The notes under the pieces are model-generated. The model was not told the origin of the DNA. It did no database searches and was given only the letters and a program-made list of their open reading frames with translations. The translations under genes were made by a program, and so were the position numbers. Shown here piece after piece: positions 10,498-61,226 of a DNA stretch of 64,000 bases (position 1 is its first letter; each line of letters starts with the position of its first letter). The DNA is from Bacteroidota bacterium (GTDB lineage: Bacteria > Bacteroidota > Bacteroidia > Chitinophagales > LD1): the NCBI GenBank assembly GCA_026391075.1, contig JAPLES010000009.1:32828-96827 (forward strand), in the 5' to 3' direction.

Positions 10498-10875
10498 ATG
10501 AATCTTGACGAAGAAATTTATAAATCGCTCCACGATGATTTGGAAATATGCCGCGATTACATCCGTCAAATTTCTATGGGCATGATTAAAGGTGAAGTGA
10601 CGAAGTATCCGATTTTTGTAGCCACGCGCGGAGAGAACGATGTAGATATTGGTTTGCCAATTGTGAACCGTGCAGACTTTGATATCAGTTGGAATTTCAA
10701 CGCATCGCACCTCGAAGAGTTTGTAAGCAAAGGAGTGGTAGTGCGCGACAAGACGAACGATTTTATTAAAGCGTATAAAAATCCGCTGGAGTTTATGTGC
10801 GTGTTTGTAGCCGAAGAAGAGGCGATGAGTTTTGTGTTTATGCCTTATGAACGCAACAAAGCAAATTTGAATTGA
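10498..10875 (+). CDS. hypothetical protein (125 aa)
   Basis: Clean ORF with an ATG start, divergent from the upstream gene. No motif recognised. Confidence 0.5.
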   Translation: MNLDEEIYKSLHDDLEICRDYIRQISMGMIKGEVTKYPIFVATRGENDVDIGLPIVNRADFDISWNFNASHLEEFVSKGVVVRDKTNDFIKAYKNPLEFMCVFVAEEEAMSFVFMPYERNKANLN

Positions 10876-10953
10876 ACGAATTCTGTTTCGCAAAACCTCC
10901 TCGGTGTTAGTACTTTCCCATTTTGCTTTTCAGCTATTTGTCAAATTAGCGCA

Positions 10954-12132
10954 ATGATTTTTTCGCCTCTCCTCGGTGTTTCCATTTTCTTTTCTGCGCT
11001 TTACTTACTACTGGTGCTTTACTTTTTTGTGGGATGGGTAAGAAGTCCGAAGTCCGAAGTTCGAAGCCTGCCTGAAGGACAGGCAGGTCCGAAGTCCGAA
11101 GCAGAACAGCCGTTTGTTTCCATCGTTATTCCTACACGTAACGAAAGCGAAAACATTAAAACCTGTTTGGAAAGTATTTTCAAACAAAACTATCCGAAGC
11201 ATTTGTTTGAAGTGGTTTTAGTAGATGATTTTTCTACCGACCCTACTTTGCGTTTTGCCCGCGAAATAAATCAACCGAATTTACTGGTGCTCGACCTCAT
11301 GCAATACATAGGCAACGCAGGTGAATATGTTCCAAACAAGAAAAAAGCAATTGCGCTCGGCATTAAAAATGCAAAGGGCGATTTGATTATTACTACCGAT
11401 GGCGATTGCACGGTTGGAGAAAACTGGTTAAGCACGATGGTGGATTATTTCACCAACAACGATTTCAAATTAGTGACTGCACCTGTAATGATGAAGCCTG
11501 CTTATTTTCCATTGCAGATTTTTCAGCAATTGGATGTAATGAACCTGATGGGAATTACAGGCGCTACTATTCGCTACAACATGCCCACCATGTGCAATGG
11601 AGCAAACCTGATGTATGCGAAACAAACTTTTCATGAAGTGGAAGGTTTCAAAGGCAATCATGATGTGCCAACGGGGGATGATATTTTTTTAATGCAAAAA
11701 GTAAATGAAAAATTTCCGGGCAGTATTGGCTTCGTGAAAAATTTCGATGCCTGTGTTTTTACAAAACCTGAGAAAGGATTGGGAAATTTTATTTCGCAGC
11801 GCATTCGCTGGATTTCAAAATCGGCACGCTACAGTAATTTTAAAATCACAAGCATTCTCTACTTCGCTTACTTTTTCAATCTGCTGATTATTCTCACCGC
11901 ATTGTTTGCCTTGCAAATGGATGAATTCAGTTGGCTGCCCGTTGCAGTTGCAGGGGGAACAAAACTCTTCGCAGATTTTATTTTCAATATTCCCGTTACC
12001 GTTTTCTTTCGCAAATGGTATATGCTTTTACTTTTACCAATCATCGAAATTTTTTACGTTTTATATGTAGTGTTGATTGGTCCGTTGAGTTTGATGGGAA
12101 GATATAGATGGAAGGACAGAAAAATTCGATAA
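10954..12132 (+). CDS. processive family-2 glycosyltransferase (D,D,D,QxxRW type) with N- and C-terminal TM segments
   Basis: VSIVIPTRNE, VDDFSTD, TTDGDC, GDDIF and QRIRW motifs, with C-terminal TM helices. Carries an in-frame repeat module in the linker after TM1. Confidence 0.85.
   Translation: MIFSPLLGVSIFFSALYLLLVLYFFVGWVRSPKSEVRSLPEGQAGPKSEAEQPFVSIVIPTRNESENIKTCLESIFKQNYPKHLFEVVLVDDFSTDPTLRFAREINQPNLLVLDLMQYIGNAGEYVPNKKKAIALGIKNAKGDLIITTDGDCTVGENWLSTMVDYFTNNDFKLVTAPVMMKPAYFPLQIFQQLDVMNLMGITGATIRYNMPTMCNGANLMYAKQTFHEVEGFKGNHDVPTGDDIFLMQKVNEKFPGSIGFVKNFDACVFTKPEKGLGNFISQRIRWISKSARYSNFKITSILYFAYFFNLLIILTALFALQMDEFSWLPVAVAGGTKLFADFIFNIPVTVFFRKWYMLLLLPIIEIFYVLYVVLIGPLSLMGRYRWKDRKIR
11044..11106. 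repeat. 63-nt in-frame module: (AGTCCGA)n - hairpin - (AGTCCGA)n
   Basis: agtccga agtccga agttcga, then the hairpin cctgcctg(11067-74)/caggcagg(11080-87), then ggtccga agtccga agcagaa. Nine 7-nt phases equal 21 codons (SPKSEVRSLPEGQAGPKSEAE). Confidence 0.85.
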
Positions 12133-12137
12133 TGAGT

Positions 12138-12212
12138 AAATTTGGAAATTTGGAAATGGAGGATGTTTATCATTTTCAAATTTCCGAATTCTCGAATTTT
12201 CAAATTCAATAA
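12138..12212. repeat. inverted arms of 8-nt tandem repeats forming a long hairpin between the GT2 gene and the permease gene
   Basis: Left arm aaatttgg aaatttgg aaatgga. Right arm ttttcaaa tttccgaa ttctcgaa ttttcaaa ttcaataa. 12141-12156 pairs with 12173-12188 over 16 positions (14 Watson-Crick plus 2 G-U). Confidence 0.75.
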
Positions 12213-33194: not shown

Positions 33195-36023
33195 ATGAAA
33201 AATTTCTACCAACAAAACCGTTTAACGAAAATGTATTCCTGCTTTCTTTTAATAGCTGGGTCTTGTTTCTTAGTGCTATACTCTTCTGCACAAGCACCTG
33301 AGGAATTCAACTATCAAGCCATAGCGCGAAATGCCACTGGTGCAGTATTGCAAAATCAAAATATCGGTTTACGTTTTAGCATTCACGATGGGTCTGATGT
33401 AGGAGCTATTGTTTATCAGGAAACGAAAACGAAAACTACGAATCAGTTGGGATTGTTTTCGCATTCCGTTGGAGGTGGAACGGTGGTGCAAGGAAATTTT
33501 TCAAGTATTGATTGGGGCAACGGAGCAAAATATTTAGAAGTAGAAATGGATGCCACCGGTGGAACGAATTATACAAGCATGGGTAATTCGCAACTGTTGA
33601 GTGTGCCTTATGCTTTGTATGCGGCTTCATCGCCAACTGTAGGCGCAACCGGACCAACCGGTGCAACCGGTGTAGCAGGAAATATTGGTGCCACTGGTGC
33701 GCAGGGCAATCAAGGAACACAAGGCGCACAAGGCGCGCAAGGCGTTCAGGGAAATCAAGGTGTGCAAGGCACACAGGGTGTTACTGGTTTGCAAGGCTCA
33801 CAAGGTTCGCAAGGTGCACAAGGTAATAATGGGGTAACGGGGTCAACCGGTTCAGTAGGCGCAACAGGCAGTGGTGGCGGTGCTACAGGACCAACAGGAC
33901 CAACCGGTTCAAACGGAGTAACAGGCAGTGGTGGTGGTGCAACGGGTCCAACAGGACCAACCGGTTTGAAAGGCACCACCGGCTCAACAGGAAGTAATGG
34001 AACTACCGGTGCGCAGGGAACACAAGGTACACAAGGCGCGCAAGGTGTGCAGGGAGTTGCGGGTTCACAAGGAGTGCAAGGACCACAAGGTGCGCAAGGT
34101 AGTGCAGGTGTAGCAGGAGCCACCGGTGCAAAAGGAGCAACAGGTTCTACTGGAGCAAACGGTGCTACCGGTAGTAAAGGTTCCACCGGCTCAACGGGTG
34201 TTACAGGTGCAGGAACCATAGGGGCAACAGGAGCCACCGGTGCTACGGGAGCAGGAGGTGTGGGGAGCATTAGTGGAACTACAAATTATGTAGTGAAGTT
34301 TACAGCCGCAACCACAGGTGGCAACTCTCAAATTTTTGATAACGGAACTAATGTAGGTATTAACAATGCTACGCCTACTGCTAAATTGCATATAACTGGT
34401 AGTGCTAACACGGTGCAACTTATGGTGAAGGCAAGTGCCACACAAACAAGTTTGTATCCGCTTATTAAACTTCAAAAATCGGATGGCACAGATTTGATGT
34501 GGCTCAATTCTGATGAAGCAACAAATACGTTTGTTGGCTATAGTGCCGGCAGAGTAAATGATGCGATTGGTGGAGCAACGAGCAATACTTTTATTGGTAA
34601 AAGTTCAGGCTATTCAAATACTTTAGGAAACAACAACACAGGCACGGGAACTAATGCGCTGCGCGATAACACTACCGGAAACTACAATACCGCCATAGGG
34701 GCAAATGCGCTTAATACCAACATTACCGGAAGCCGAAATGTAGCCACCGGCAATGGCGCGCTTGGAGCAAACGACAATGGCGATAACAACACTGCCATTG
34801 GATATAATGTGCTTAATGCAAACACCTCCGGCTCTTCGAATGCTGCTATTGGTTACCAAACATTGCTGGTGAATACTACTGGTGCAAGCAATTGCGCTAT
34901 GGGATTTTGGGCGCTTTATTCCAACATTGATGGTGATTATAATATTGCCATTGGAGCCAATGCCCTTCATTCTAACACAGCTGGCGATAACAATATCGGC
35001 ATTGGACTTCGCTCACTTAACGACAACACCACGGGCAGCTACAATATTTCTATAGGCTATGAGGCGCTTAATAAAAATCTTTCGGGCTACAACAATATTG
35101 GCATCGGCTACCAGGCACTTTACAAAAACACCACAGGCTACTACAATTCGGCTACCGGAGAGCAAGCGCTGTATTCCAACACAACCGGCTATAGAAATAC
35201 TGCCACCGGTTATCAGGCACTTTATCATAACACTACAGATTTTGAAAATACTGCCACTGGATATTTGGCACTTTATACCAATACAGGATTTCAGAATACT
35301 GCCTTTGGAGCTTACGCGCTTCATGATAACAGCGATGGGTACAGCAACACGGCAGTAGGAAAAGATGCCTTACAGAATAACATATCAGGCGACCATAATG
35401 TGGCAATAGGATTTGGTGCAGGCACCAACCAAATTACCGGAGGCGATTGCACTTTTTTGGGATATTCTGCTGACCAAACCGGTTCTACCTTTACCAACGC
35501 AACGGCTATTGGCTACTTCGCTTCGGTAAACGCAAGTAATGAAGTGCGCATTGGAAATTCATCTATCACAGAAATTGGTGGATACGTTGGCTGGACAAAT
35601 GTGAGCGATGGGCGTTACAAGAAAAATATTTCGGACAATGAGTTTGGCTTAAACTTTATTACAAAACTGAGACCGGTTACTTATAATTTGGAAGTGAACA
35701 AATTAGCCGCTCATTTAAAAGAAGATGAACACCGGAATAGCAATGGAGTTAAAGAATATGTAGCACCAAATGCTATCACTAAACAATCGCGCGATGACAA
35801 AGAAAAAATTCTATACACCGGTTTTATTGCACAGGAAGTAGAAGCTGCTGCAAAAGCAGTGGGCTATAATTTCAGTGGAGTTTCTACACCAAACAAGGAA
35901 GATGAGTTGTATGGGTTGCGCTATGCAGAATTTGTTGTGCCACTAGTAAAAGCTGTGCAGGAACTTTCTAAACAGAACGAAGAAATGAAGAAGGAAATAG
36001 AATTACTTAAGAAGAAGCAATAG
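33195..36023 (+). CDS. collagen-like / beta-helical repeat fibre protein with C-terminal S74-type intramolecular chaperone (tail-fibre) domain
   Basis: Signal peptide, about 200 aa of Gly-X-Y, about 25 repeats of NTA(I/T)G..AL..NT.G, then [12 protein letters not shown]...[10 protein letters not shown]...[19 protein letters not shown] and a terminal coiled coil. Confidence 0.85.
33642..34263 (+). repeat. collagen-like Gly-X-Y triplet array (coding) with an internal 57-nt tandem duplication
   Basis: Uninterrupted GXY from [10 protein letters not shown] to [22 protein letters not shown] occurs twice in tandem. Confidence 0.9.
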
Positions 36024-60410: not shown

Positions 60411-61226
60411 ATGTCGAAACAAAATAAACAGGCGATGCAGCGCGAAAAAATTTACGAACTCCTCGAACGCAAATACAAGGAACACAACTCGGCTGTTTTC
60501 ATTGAAACCGACCCCATTTCTATTCCTCATCGCTTTTCAAAAAAACAGGATATAGAAATTGCGGCTTTCTTTTCTGCCACCATTGCATGGGGAAACCGAA
60601 AATCAATTATCACTTCGGCTAACAAATTGATGAACCTGACGGATAACGCTCCACATGATTTTGTATTGAATCATCAGGATAAAGATTTGAAACGTTTGCT
60701 TGATTTCAAGCACCGAACTTTTAACGCTACCGACACACTTTATTTTGTTGAATTTTTGAAACAACATTATTTAAAACACGAAAGTTTGGAGGAAGCGTTT
60801 TTAAAGTCAGAAGTCCGAAGTCGGATGTCCGAAGCAACTACTGAAAATGCAATTGCTATTTTTCACGAGAACTTTTTTTCGCTTGAAGATTCTCCGCATC
60901 GTACACGTAAGCACATAGCCACTCCTGTTCGCGGAAGTACATGCAAGAGAATGAATATGTTTCTTAGGTGGATGGTACGAAAAGATAAAAGCGGAGTTGA
61001 TTTTGGAATTTGGAAGAAGATAAAACCCGCACAACTTTTAATTCCGCTTGATGTGCATGTAGACAGAACCGCACGCAAACTAGGCTTGATAAAACGCAAA
61101 CAAACCGATTGGGAAACTGTTTTGGAATTGACCGAAAATTTAAAATCGTTTGACCCTAAAGACCCGGTAAAATACGACTTCGCACTTTTCGGAATTAGTG
61201 TGTTGGATAAAATGCTGATACATTAG
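60411..61226 (+). CDS. TIGR02757/DUF2400-family protein
   Basis: Resembles the conserved family (DPISIPHRF, IAWGNRK, LIPLDVHV). ATG at 60411 or 60435. Contains an in-frame AGTCCGA repeat. Confidence 0.6.
   Translation: MSKQNKQAMQREKIYELLERKYKEHNSAVFIETDPISIPHRFSKKQDIEIAAFFSATIAWGNRKSIITSANKLMNLTDNAPHDFVLNHQDKDLKRLLDFKHRTFNATDTLYFVEFLKQHYLKHESLEEAFLKSEVRSRMSEATTENAIAIFHENFFSLEDSPHRTRKHIATPVRGSTCKRMNMFLRWMVRKDKSGVDFGIWKKIKPAQLLIPLDVHVDRTARKLGLIKRKQTDWETVLELTENLKSFDPKDPVKYDFALFGISVLDKMLIH
60805..60832. repeat. (AGTCCGA)-family heptamer repeat inside coding sequence (agtcaga agtccga agtcgga tgtccga)
   Basis: Read directly. 60809-60822 is an exact 14-mer copy of 11041-11054. Confidence 0.8.

Follow-up and report, generated by a model that had tools for sequence, protein, structure and literature searches.

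The literature on dispersed heptanucleotide repeats goes back to 1990, and the spread of one unit through a genome is still unexplained. Among the closest described systems, the short tandemly repeated repetitive (STRR) heptanucleotides of heterocystous cyanobacteria were reportedly described by Mazel and colleagues in 1990, and the SDR elements of Nostoc punctiforme, which Elhai and colleagues are said to have described in 2008, are reportedly 21–27 nt long, hairpin-forming, insertion-like, and nested in other repeats. Long simple sequence repeats (LSSRs) include heptanucleotide arrays, with heptamers being the commonest class according to the summary of Mrazek et al. 2007 given in PMC4679880; TAACTGA repeats are found in Beggiatoaceae, cyanobacteria, and five Bacteroidetes (PMC4679880), and heptameric G4 repeats in Xanthomonas and Nostoc (PMC4692102). 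Small dispersed palindromes are represented by intragenic REP elements (Di Nocera et al. 2013, PMC3733652), by the REP/RAYT system (Bertels & Rainey 2011, PMC3116915), and by the Rickettsia palindromic elements (RPEs), which are ~100–150 bp long and restricted to Rickettsia in the account of Ogata et al. 2000 as cited in PMC3733652. Here we analyze a 63-base module, in which AGTCCGA-type heptamers surround a hairpin, in a GT2-family glycosyltransferase gene of a Bacteroidota bacterium (order Chitinophagales; GCA_026391075.1). The gene lies in a 64,000-nt stretch of contig JAPLES010000009.1 (positions 32,828 to 96,827; hereafter, the window, C60:32828-96827 in our contig numbering) of a 3.6-Mb metagenome-assembled genome (MAG), G000, with 40% GC and 91 contigs, which we compared with 31 related genomes of the genus and order, all of them MAGs and with G008 as the closest relative. 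We propose, with a probability of about 0.8, that the module was built up from two layers of small repetitive DNA, each independent of the other, in a linker where selection is loose. Both layers belong to known repeat classes, and the module is not a new composite mobile element.

The GT2 gene (10954-12132, + strand) is an open reading frame (ORF) of 392 aa that encodes, in order, a first transmembrane segment (TM1), the linker bearing the module, and the catalytic domain. Pfam PF00535 (GT2) covers residues 56-179 (E 1.7e-22), starting directly past the module, and orthologues were found in 31/31 related genomes. The whole module is in frame and is translated as SPKSEVRSLPEGQAGPKSEAE. Its left part (11044-11066, +) consists of AGTCCGA AGTCCGA AGTTCGA (11044-11064) followed by AG and encodes SPKSEVRS; nested within the array is the 21-nt palindrome CCTGCCTG-AAGGA-CAGGCAGG (11067-11087, +), with a perfect 8-bp stem, which encodes LPEGQAG; and the right part (11088-11106, +), (GG)TCCGA AGTCCGA AGCAGAA, encodes PKSEAE. 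Positions 11086-11099 read GGTCCGA AGTCCGA. The first-pass annotation of the window, made from the letters alone, had counted nine heptamer phases here, and its arithmetic is right, but the module is really six array units plus a 21-nt insert that happens to be 3 × 7 nt.

A second array, AGTCAGA AGTCCGA AGTCGGA TGTCCGA (60805-60832, +), encodes KSEVRSRMSE in a variable loop of a DUF2400/TIGR02757-type gene (60414-61226, +; Pfam PF09674, E 1.7e-89) and contains no palindrome. The two sites share the exact 14-mer AGAAGTCCGAAGTC (11041-11054 = 60809-60822), and two tandem units, AGTCCGAAGTCCGA, matched the window six times with ≤2 mismatches vs 0.17 expected, a count reached in 0/100 shuffles. 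Tandem Repeats Finder (TRF) called period-7 repeats at 11042-11066, 11087-11101, and 60804-60834 of the window. The first-pass annotation reported units, an 8-bp hairpin, a reading frame, and a common 14-mer, all of which are present and far above chance, and its proposal that the two genes are linked at the level of a nucleotide repeat, not by protein homology, is confirmed. The GT2 and DUF2400 copies are alike because both are members of a genome-wide AGTCCGA family.

We searched the whole genome for period-7 arrays using TRF and also counted AGTCCGA loci using a regular expression. Period 7 was the commonest TRF period in G000 (475/1987 rows, with 137 for period 14 and 49 for period 21), and the calls comprised 329 heptanucleotide arrays (~330) of 171 distinct unit classes, typically with ~4 copies each, of which AATAGAC was the largest class (32 arrays) and AAGTCCG the second (16 arrays). 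The regular expression returned ~20 AGTCCGA loci on 15 contigs, only one of them bearing a hairpin. While 185/329 arrays lie inside unambiguous ORFs ≥200 aa, 76 of these in the first 40 codons, ~60% of arrays fall in stop-free frames ≥150 aa vs 89% of random sites, indicating that arrays are enriched between genes even though the majority is coding. Orientation is strongly biased: AGTCCGA is on the sense strand in 17/20 loci, the three exceptions being in ORFs of 83-288 aa that are putative genes, and in unambiguous ORFs ≥200 aa the AAGTCCG class is sense in 12/13 coding arrays, encoding SPKSEVR. Since the antisense strand of AGTCCGA is stop-free, stop codons do not account for this bias. ATTGTCT is likewise sense in 23/24 coding arrays, encoding SIVYCLL, a signal-peptide core. 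The AGTCCGA unit is read in all three phases across ~17 unrelated proteins, and in each phase its sense strand gives the hydrophilic heptad S-P-K-S-E-V-R, which in the GT2 protein would serve as a spacer between TM1 and the catalytic domain. The flanks of arrays in G000 are enriched ~10-fold for AAATRCA and ACAGCC, pointing outward. Many arrays of the genome form inverted pairs around AATACA...GGCTGTT spacers (examples are C14:12417-12491, C57:30891-30976, and C65:7204), and at C14:70832 the n- and h-regions of a signal peptide may be encoded jointly by two arrays and AACAGCC, judging from their sequence.

The arrays resemble STRRs and LSSRs in their 7-nt unit, in their short tandem arrays of 2-6 copies arranged head-to-tail, in the dispersal of one unit over many loci, in their patchy and lineage-specific distribution, and in that the mechanism of dispersal is unexplained. 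They differ in several respects. At least 171 unit classes occur in one genome here; over half of the arrays are in ORFs and yield, on translation, either hydrophilic linkers or the hydrophobic cores of signal peptides, whereas cyanobacterial STRR and TAACTGA repeats are described as mostly intergenic (compare the 185/329 arrays in ORFs above); and arrays keep their positions from one species to another as their unit family changes, in a freshwater Chitinophagales lineage of MAGs.

Comparison with relatives revealed this combination of stable positions and changing units. Matches to two tandem AGTCCGA units numbered 40 in G000 and 24 in G008 vs 0-4 in 29 other relatives (control, 0-4), and the AGTCCGA family is lineage-specific. 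The density of heptamers per 100 kb was 9.3 in G000, 9.8 in G008, 7.9 in G021, 3.3 in G028, and 0.7 in G012, which belongs to the same genus, and this spread from 0.7 to 9.8 indicates that the heptamer-array trait is patchy across relatives. In the GT2 linker, G008 has GAATGCG-type units and other congeners have CAACAGA or CGAAGCC; in the DUF2400 loop, G006 has ATGCGGA/ATGCAGA and others AAATCSG or CAATTCR. The remaining congeners have short, weakly periodic loops at the two sites, and in orthologues from the order's other families the loops are short and show no evident repeat at either site. The presence of period-7 arrays with other units at the same sites in several congeners corrects the first-pass annotation on one point: the arrays did not enter either gene by recent insertion. 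The same annotation had named a conserved peptide without the nucleotide repeat, if found in orthologues, as evidence against its own proposal, and what we found instead is that peptides are hypervariable across orthologues at both focal sites. It is accordingly hardly credible that an ancestral linker peptide has been maintained here at the protein level, with nucleotide periodicity being incidental: all orthologues have a linker of similar length, but congener peptides are unrelated and several congeners still show the nucleotide periodicity, and a protein-level constraint fits poorly with a unit that is used in every reading phase by unrelated proteins.

Orthologous arrays could be followed closely between G000 and G008. 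Eleven AGTCCGA loci of G008 were compared with the corresponding G000 positions, with flanks 82-92% identical, and the unit was common to both genomes in just two. Six of the 11 had in-register G000 arrays of similar length (ATTCAGA, AGACGRC, TAGACAA, AAAATCA, CAGACAA, and TGACCAT), each of these units being itself a multi-locus unit, one had same-length non-repetitive DNA in G000, and two had indels. Across a 386-kb sample of G008, 42 orthologous array pairs comprised 15 with the same unit, 13 that were periodic but diverged, 10 with an indel ≥10 nt, and 4 that were non-periodic in the partner. Diverged arrays were 67% identical in register vs 65% at third codon positions, indicating that arrays mostly descend in situ at a near-neutral rate while staying internally homogeneous. 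General replacement of arrays by unrelated DNA is excluded by the finding that 10/11 diverged pairs exceeded the 95th percentile of similarity of random pairs in register, and substitutional hypermutability between species is excluded by a mean array identity of 0.81, compared with 0.83 in flanks and 0.65 at third codon positions. The arrays are old residents of hypervariable loops with unit turnover, not fresh insertions.

Variation between strains was assessed using assembled Logan contigs from 4+4 runs across the two focal sites. One contig (run X4, an independent lake metagenome) spans both sites. Within 10905-11300 it differs from G000 at five positions, three of them in the module, with the palindrome unchanged: 11061 T>C turns the third unit, AGTTCGA, into a perfect AGTCCGA, and 11096 C>A with 11097 C>T turns a unit into AGTATGA. 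Within 60650-60990 it differs at four positions, two of them in the array, namely 60809 A>C, which yields a perfect AGTCCGA, and 60814 T>G. Strain polymorphisms are therefore concentrated in the arrays (5/9 within 91/737 nt). These hotspots, and the fact that 7 is not a multiple of 3, such that a change of a single unit would shift the frame and inactivate the gene, are what an interpretation of the arrays as contingency (phase-variation) switches kept by second-order selection has in its favor. We nonetheless regard it as improbable, since no indels or unit-number variants were seen at either site in the contigs of the 4+4 runs, which drop rare variants, G000 and G008 have mostly kept the same array lengths, the arrays are short (3-5 units), with low slippage rates expected, and arrays occur in housekeeping genes too, a 3-dehydroquinate synthase-like gene being one.

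The palindrome has a history separate from that of the array. In MAG CANJZE01 (our locus L076), which is ~90% identical to G000 in nucleotide sequence at the GT2 site, the linker reads GGGTAAGA TTGAAAA AGTCCGA AGTCGGA A|GACCGA AGTCAGA AGCAGAA, an AGTCCGA-type array with a clean 21-nt gap exactly at the position of the G000 palindrome. This array without a palindrome indicates that the palindrome is separate from the AGTCCGA units. G008 is likewise 21 nt shorter at this site, with its other unit family there. The earlier idea of a small structured element inserted in frame and tolerated as a linker holds for the 21-nt palindrome but not for the AGTCCGA units, which, as the L076 and DUF2400 copies reveal, are not its arms.

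Counting exact stems, with a search for the reversed pattern as control, we found CCTGCCT-N(3-9)-AGGCAGG at 8 loci in G000, 10 in G008, 22 in G014, 5 in G017, 3 in G012, and 0-3 in others, while the control gave 0 in nearly all genomes. The consensus is CCTGCCTRCCGGYAGGCAGG, and copies are 19-21 nt long. Three G000 palindromes lie inside conserved protein genes, all of them 21 nt long, as expected from a filter on reading frame; the 19- and 20-nt copies of G000 are between genes or in short or doubtful ORFs. Besides the GT2 copy, the palindrome at C60:157821 adds LPAGQAG and is absent from five relatives, and that at C62:42003 adds PASSAGR to a 3-dehydroquinate-synthase-like protein and is also nested at a site of heptamer arrays, with AACTTGA units there in G008 and AGAAATC ×4 in G006. 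A further in-frame 21-nt polymorphism, filled in G008 (C4:65186) and empty in G000 (C83), has the flanks AAAACAAA|...|TAC and no target duplication. The 20-nt consensus also occurred at 57 sites in 48 IMG/VR viral-contig stretches (L137-L184, e.g., L164, L173, and L175 [IMGVR_UViG_3300037242_000417]; GC 0.33-0.70) where, by a rough estimate, <1 was expected by chance, and 38 of the 57 sites are in stop-free frames ≥150 aa. One 29.5-kb viral contig carries six copies.

These observations weigh heavily on the interpretation that the whole 63-nt (AGTCCGA)n-hairpin-(AGTCCGA)n segment is one mobile element inserted in both genes. The units flank the hairpin symmetrically and everything is in frame, the 14-mer is common to both genes, and two of the three coding G000 palindromes lie within heptamer-array sites. 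Yet the arrays of L076 and of the DUF2400 gene are hairpin-free, a hairpin is present in one of ~20 AGTCCGA arrays, other palindromes, in unrelated genes and in intergenic DNA, have no AGTCCGA flanks, and at both sites the arrays of several congeners are made of other units, making such an element very improbable.

Scarcely more probable is that the hairpin, the repeats, or both are a selected mRNA or DNA signal at the boundary between TM1 and the catalytic domain, which might pause translation or bind a protein. The RNA of the module folds at -30.1 kcal/mol, dominated by a 9-bp palindrome stem, and this fold, along with the sense orientation of AGTCCGA despite an open antisense strand and the enriched flanking motifs, might be expected of a signal. 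The hairpin is, however, missing at the GT2 site in the closest relatives, the units differ between species, the same palindrome occurs in unrelated genes and between genes, and an Rfam search (e-value mode) over 10700-11500 returned sub-threshold noise only and no family. Folding, which the first-pass annotation had also proposed, did recover the 9-bp stem, but with a z of -2.3 the fold only modestly beats shuffles, and a dedicated RNA structure at the module is unsupported.

As a dispersed, GC-rich palindrome of ~20 nt that is sometimes wholly within an ORF, translated, and without target duplication, the CCTGCCT element resembles REPs, which are imperfect palindromes of 20-40 nt. It differs from them in copy number (8 loci in G000 and a maximum of 22 in relatives vs hundreds for REP), in showing no evident terminal GTAG/CGTC tag (GGTAGG is internal in some copies, and the GT2 copy has no tag), in that its copies are not REPIN doublets, and in that no exact-pattern copy in G000, G008, or G014 adjoins a RAYT (Y1_Tnp) match. 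MITEs have terminal inverted repeats and target-site duplications and span 70-300 bp, while the palindrome is 21 nt long and showed no duplication in four empty/filled comparisons. With RPEs, as these are described in the citing account we used, it shares the character of a palindromic insert in a functional gene, in frame, translated, and absent from orthologues, in four cases here (GT2, C60:157821, C62:42003, and G008 C4:65186), though at 21 nt and in another taxon the likeness is an analogy only. The nearest analogue is SDR, which by its reported description is likewise a hairpin of about 21 nt, insertion-like and nested in repeats; the palindrome described here differs in sequence, phylum, and copy number, in its clean in-frame insertions in conserved proteins, and in its association with a cassette of a GIY-YIG gene and a tRNA gene.

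That association was found among candidate agents for moving the palindrome. One small GIY-YIG subfamily, with members of 77-82 aa that share 65-68% mutual identity and ≤49% identity with other small GIY-YIG ORFs, is present in 3/31 genomes, and all three members adjoin tRNA-Leu(CAA) and have a palindrome 34-72 nt from the ORF (G008:C177:3089-3393, G019:C23:70493-70777, and G004:C34:78288-78590; loci L127-L129). The G008 member is a protein of 82 aa encoded at C177:3148-3393. Cassettes of the GIY-YIG gene, tRNA-Leu(CAA), and CCTGCCTG..CAGGCAGG are conserved across two families of the order, G019 being from another family, and we estimate that ~0.02 such adjacencies would be expected by chance. 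In viral contigs, two ORFs matching the profile hidden Markov model lie 61-98 nt from a palindrome, a weaker observation given that these loci were preselected for the palindrome. Genomes with more GIY-YIG genes overall do not have correspondingly more palindromes, one subfamily alone being linked; the link is an association, not a demonstrated mechanism, and our search of the literature for GIY-YIG/tRNA/palindrome cassettes in Bacteroidetes found nothing relevant. The GT2 palindrome is a solitary copy without a nuclease cassette, and no cassette accompanies tRNA-Leu(CAA) in G000. The same tRNA-Leu(CAA) and flank stand at the end of C42 (50401-50485) and at the start of C88 (1-83) in G000, indicating that these contigs overlap and that the assembly breaks at this tRNA. 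Other small GIY-YIG ORFs adjoin tRNA-Ser, tRNA-Met, and tRNA-Ala, and in G014 a TCCCGC hairpin lies 34-37 nt downstream of the small GIY-YIG genes by tRNA-Met and tRNA-Ala.

Transposases of the other candidate type, Y1_Tnp (PF01797; RAYT/IS200-type), are present in 28/31 relatives with no evident relation to palindrome count. A RAYT link in G000 was rejected, as the small hairpins on either side of the Y1_Tnp gene at C44:55572-55916 are of other kinds and not the CCTGCCT palindrome. Intergenic DNA at C44:69077-69330 holds three different GC hairpins (CCTGCCT.., CCCCTCCC.., and TCCCGC..), and ~230 nt past this cluster a 14-G homopolymer adjoins another palindrome copy. TCCCGC-N(3-9)-GCGGGA hairpins form a second family, larger than that of CCTGCCT, with 33 loci in G000 and 0 in the reversed control (e.g., C14:25439, C33:22911, and C60:167646), and many of its copies are extended as TTGTTTCA-TCCCGC..GCGGGA-TGAAACAA.

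In the explanation that we propose, the first layer of the module is a tandem array of the AGTCCGA family of this genome, of the STRR/LSSR type, with the DUF2400 copy being another array of that family. Heptamer arrays occupy stable positions in intergenic leaders, in signal peptides, and in the variable loops of proteins, where their units drift at an approximately neutral rate and are homogenised within each array, we infer by slippage or short-tract conversion, with frame-safe changes of length inside genes limited to steps of three units (21 nt). The second layer is a 21-nt GC-rich micro-element, CCTGCCT-N7-AGGCAGG, REP-like or SDR-like, that was inserted precisely mid-array, in frame and without target duplication, after the split from the closest relatives, adding LPEGQAG; the small tRNA-Leu-linked GIY-YIG nuclease and a Y1/HUH transposase are candidate agents. 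Of all this, the data demonstrate the composite anatomy, the membership of each layer in its family, the presence/absence polymorphisms, the lineage specificity, and the bias to the sense strand, while the mechanism of array change, the neutrality of the peptide, and the mover of the palindrome are inferences. Since sister species have not kept the hairpin or the unit sequence at the GT2 site, array and palindrome are most likely both tolerated linker filler that is translated as a hydrophilic spacer.

Several observations weigh against this two-layer explanation. Homogenisation within arrays plus drift leaves the presence of one unit at ~20 unlinked loci unexplained, and both units of diverged pairs are multi-locus in G000 more often than random 2-3-step mutants (Mann–Whitney, p = 0.006 and 0.003; n = 8 pairs), so that some inter-locus process or selection is absent from the model. 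Candidate movers fit G000 poorly: no Y1_Tnp gene is beside an exact-pattern palindrome in G000, G008, or G014, the nearest pair being ~13 kb apart, and the GIY-YIG subfamily is absent from G000, with its 8 palindromes, and from G014, with 22. Slippage and conversion are putative mechanisms, assembled contigs hide rare length variants, and the neutrality of the peptide is assumed. The sample used for comparing arrays represents ~11% of the G008 genome, and the coding status of arrays was taken from stop-free frames without curated gene calls. The multi-locus excess, together with a repeated correspondence between AGTCSGA and ATGCRGA (5/7 identical in register) at both the GT2 and DUF2400 sites, points to some inter-locus copying or unit-specific selection. 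A fuller version of this idea, in which ectopic templated repair or gene conversion between loci keeps families alike and lets arrays switch family at constant length, and in which the palindrome is a trans-mobilised recognition hairpin or the footprint of a minimal tRNA-Leu-linked GIY-YIG cassette that is also found in phage-like contigs, is in our view unlikely.

The window contains other repeats as well. The intergenic region between the GT2 gene and a permease gene (12138-12206) contains TRF-called octamer arrays of AAATTTGG ×2.5 and ATTTTCAA ×4.4. Dense 9-, 18-, and 57-nt periodic repeats (e.g., GGTGCGCAA and CAACAGGAC) fill 33645-34168, which from their sequence may code for collagen-like Gly-X-Y or similar triplet repeats. 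A 51-nt tandem repeat at 35087-35276 has 3.7 copies with 66% matches.

Dispersed heptanucleotide repeats, intragenic REPs, and RPEs were already known. New here are the decomposition of the module into two layers, the lineage-specific AGTCCGA family, the conservation of array positions with turnover of unit families, four dated palindrome insertions, and, in Chitinophagales, the association of the palindrome with tRNA-Leu(CAA) and a GIY-YIG subfamily. For annotation, such segments are not to be taken for protein homology between unrelated genes. With at least 19 congeneric genomes available for this uncultured freshwater genus, conserved positions and unit turnover mean that donor and recipient relations could be polarised using outgroups. 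The palindrome offers four clean, datable in-frame insertions and a candidate partner, the ~80-aa GIY-YIG nuclease by tRNA-Leu(CAA), for micro-insertions whose mobilisation is unexplained. In this genome, heptamer repeats routinely give rise to low-complexity stretches of protein, in the form of linkers as well as signal-peptide cores.

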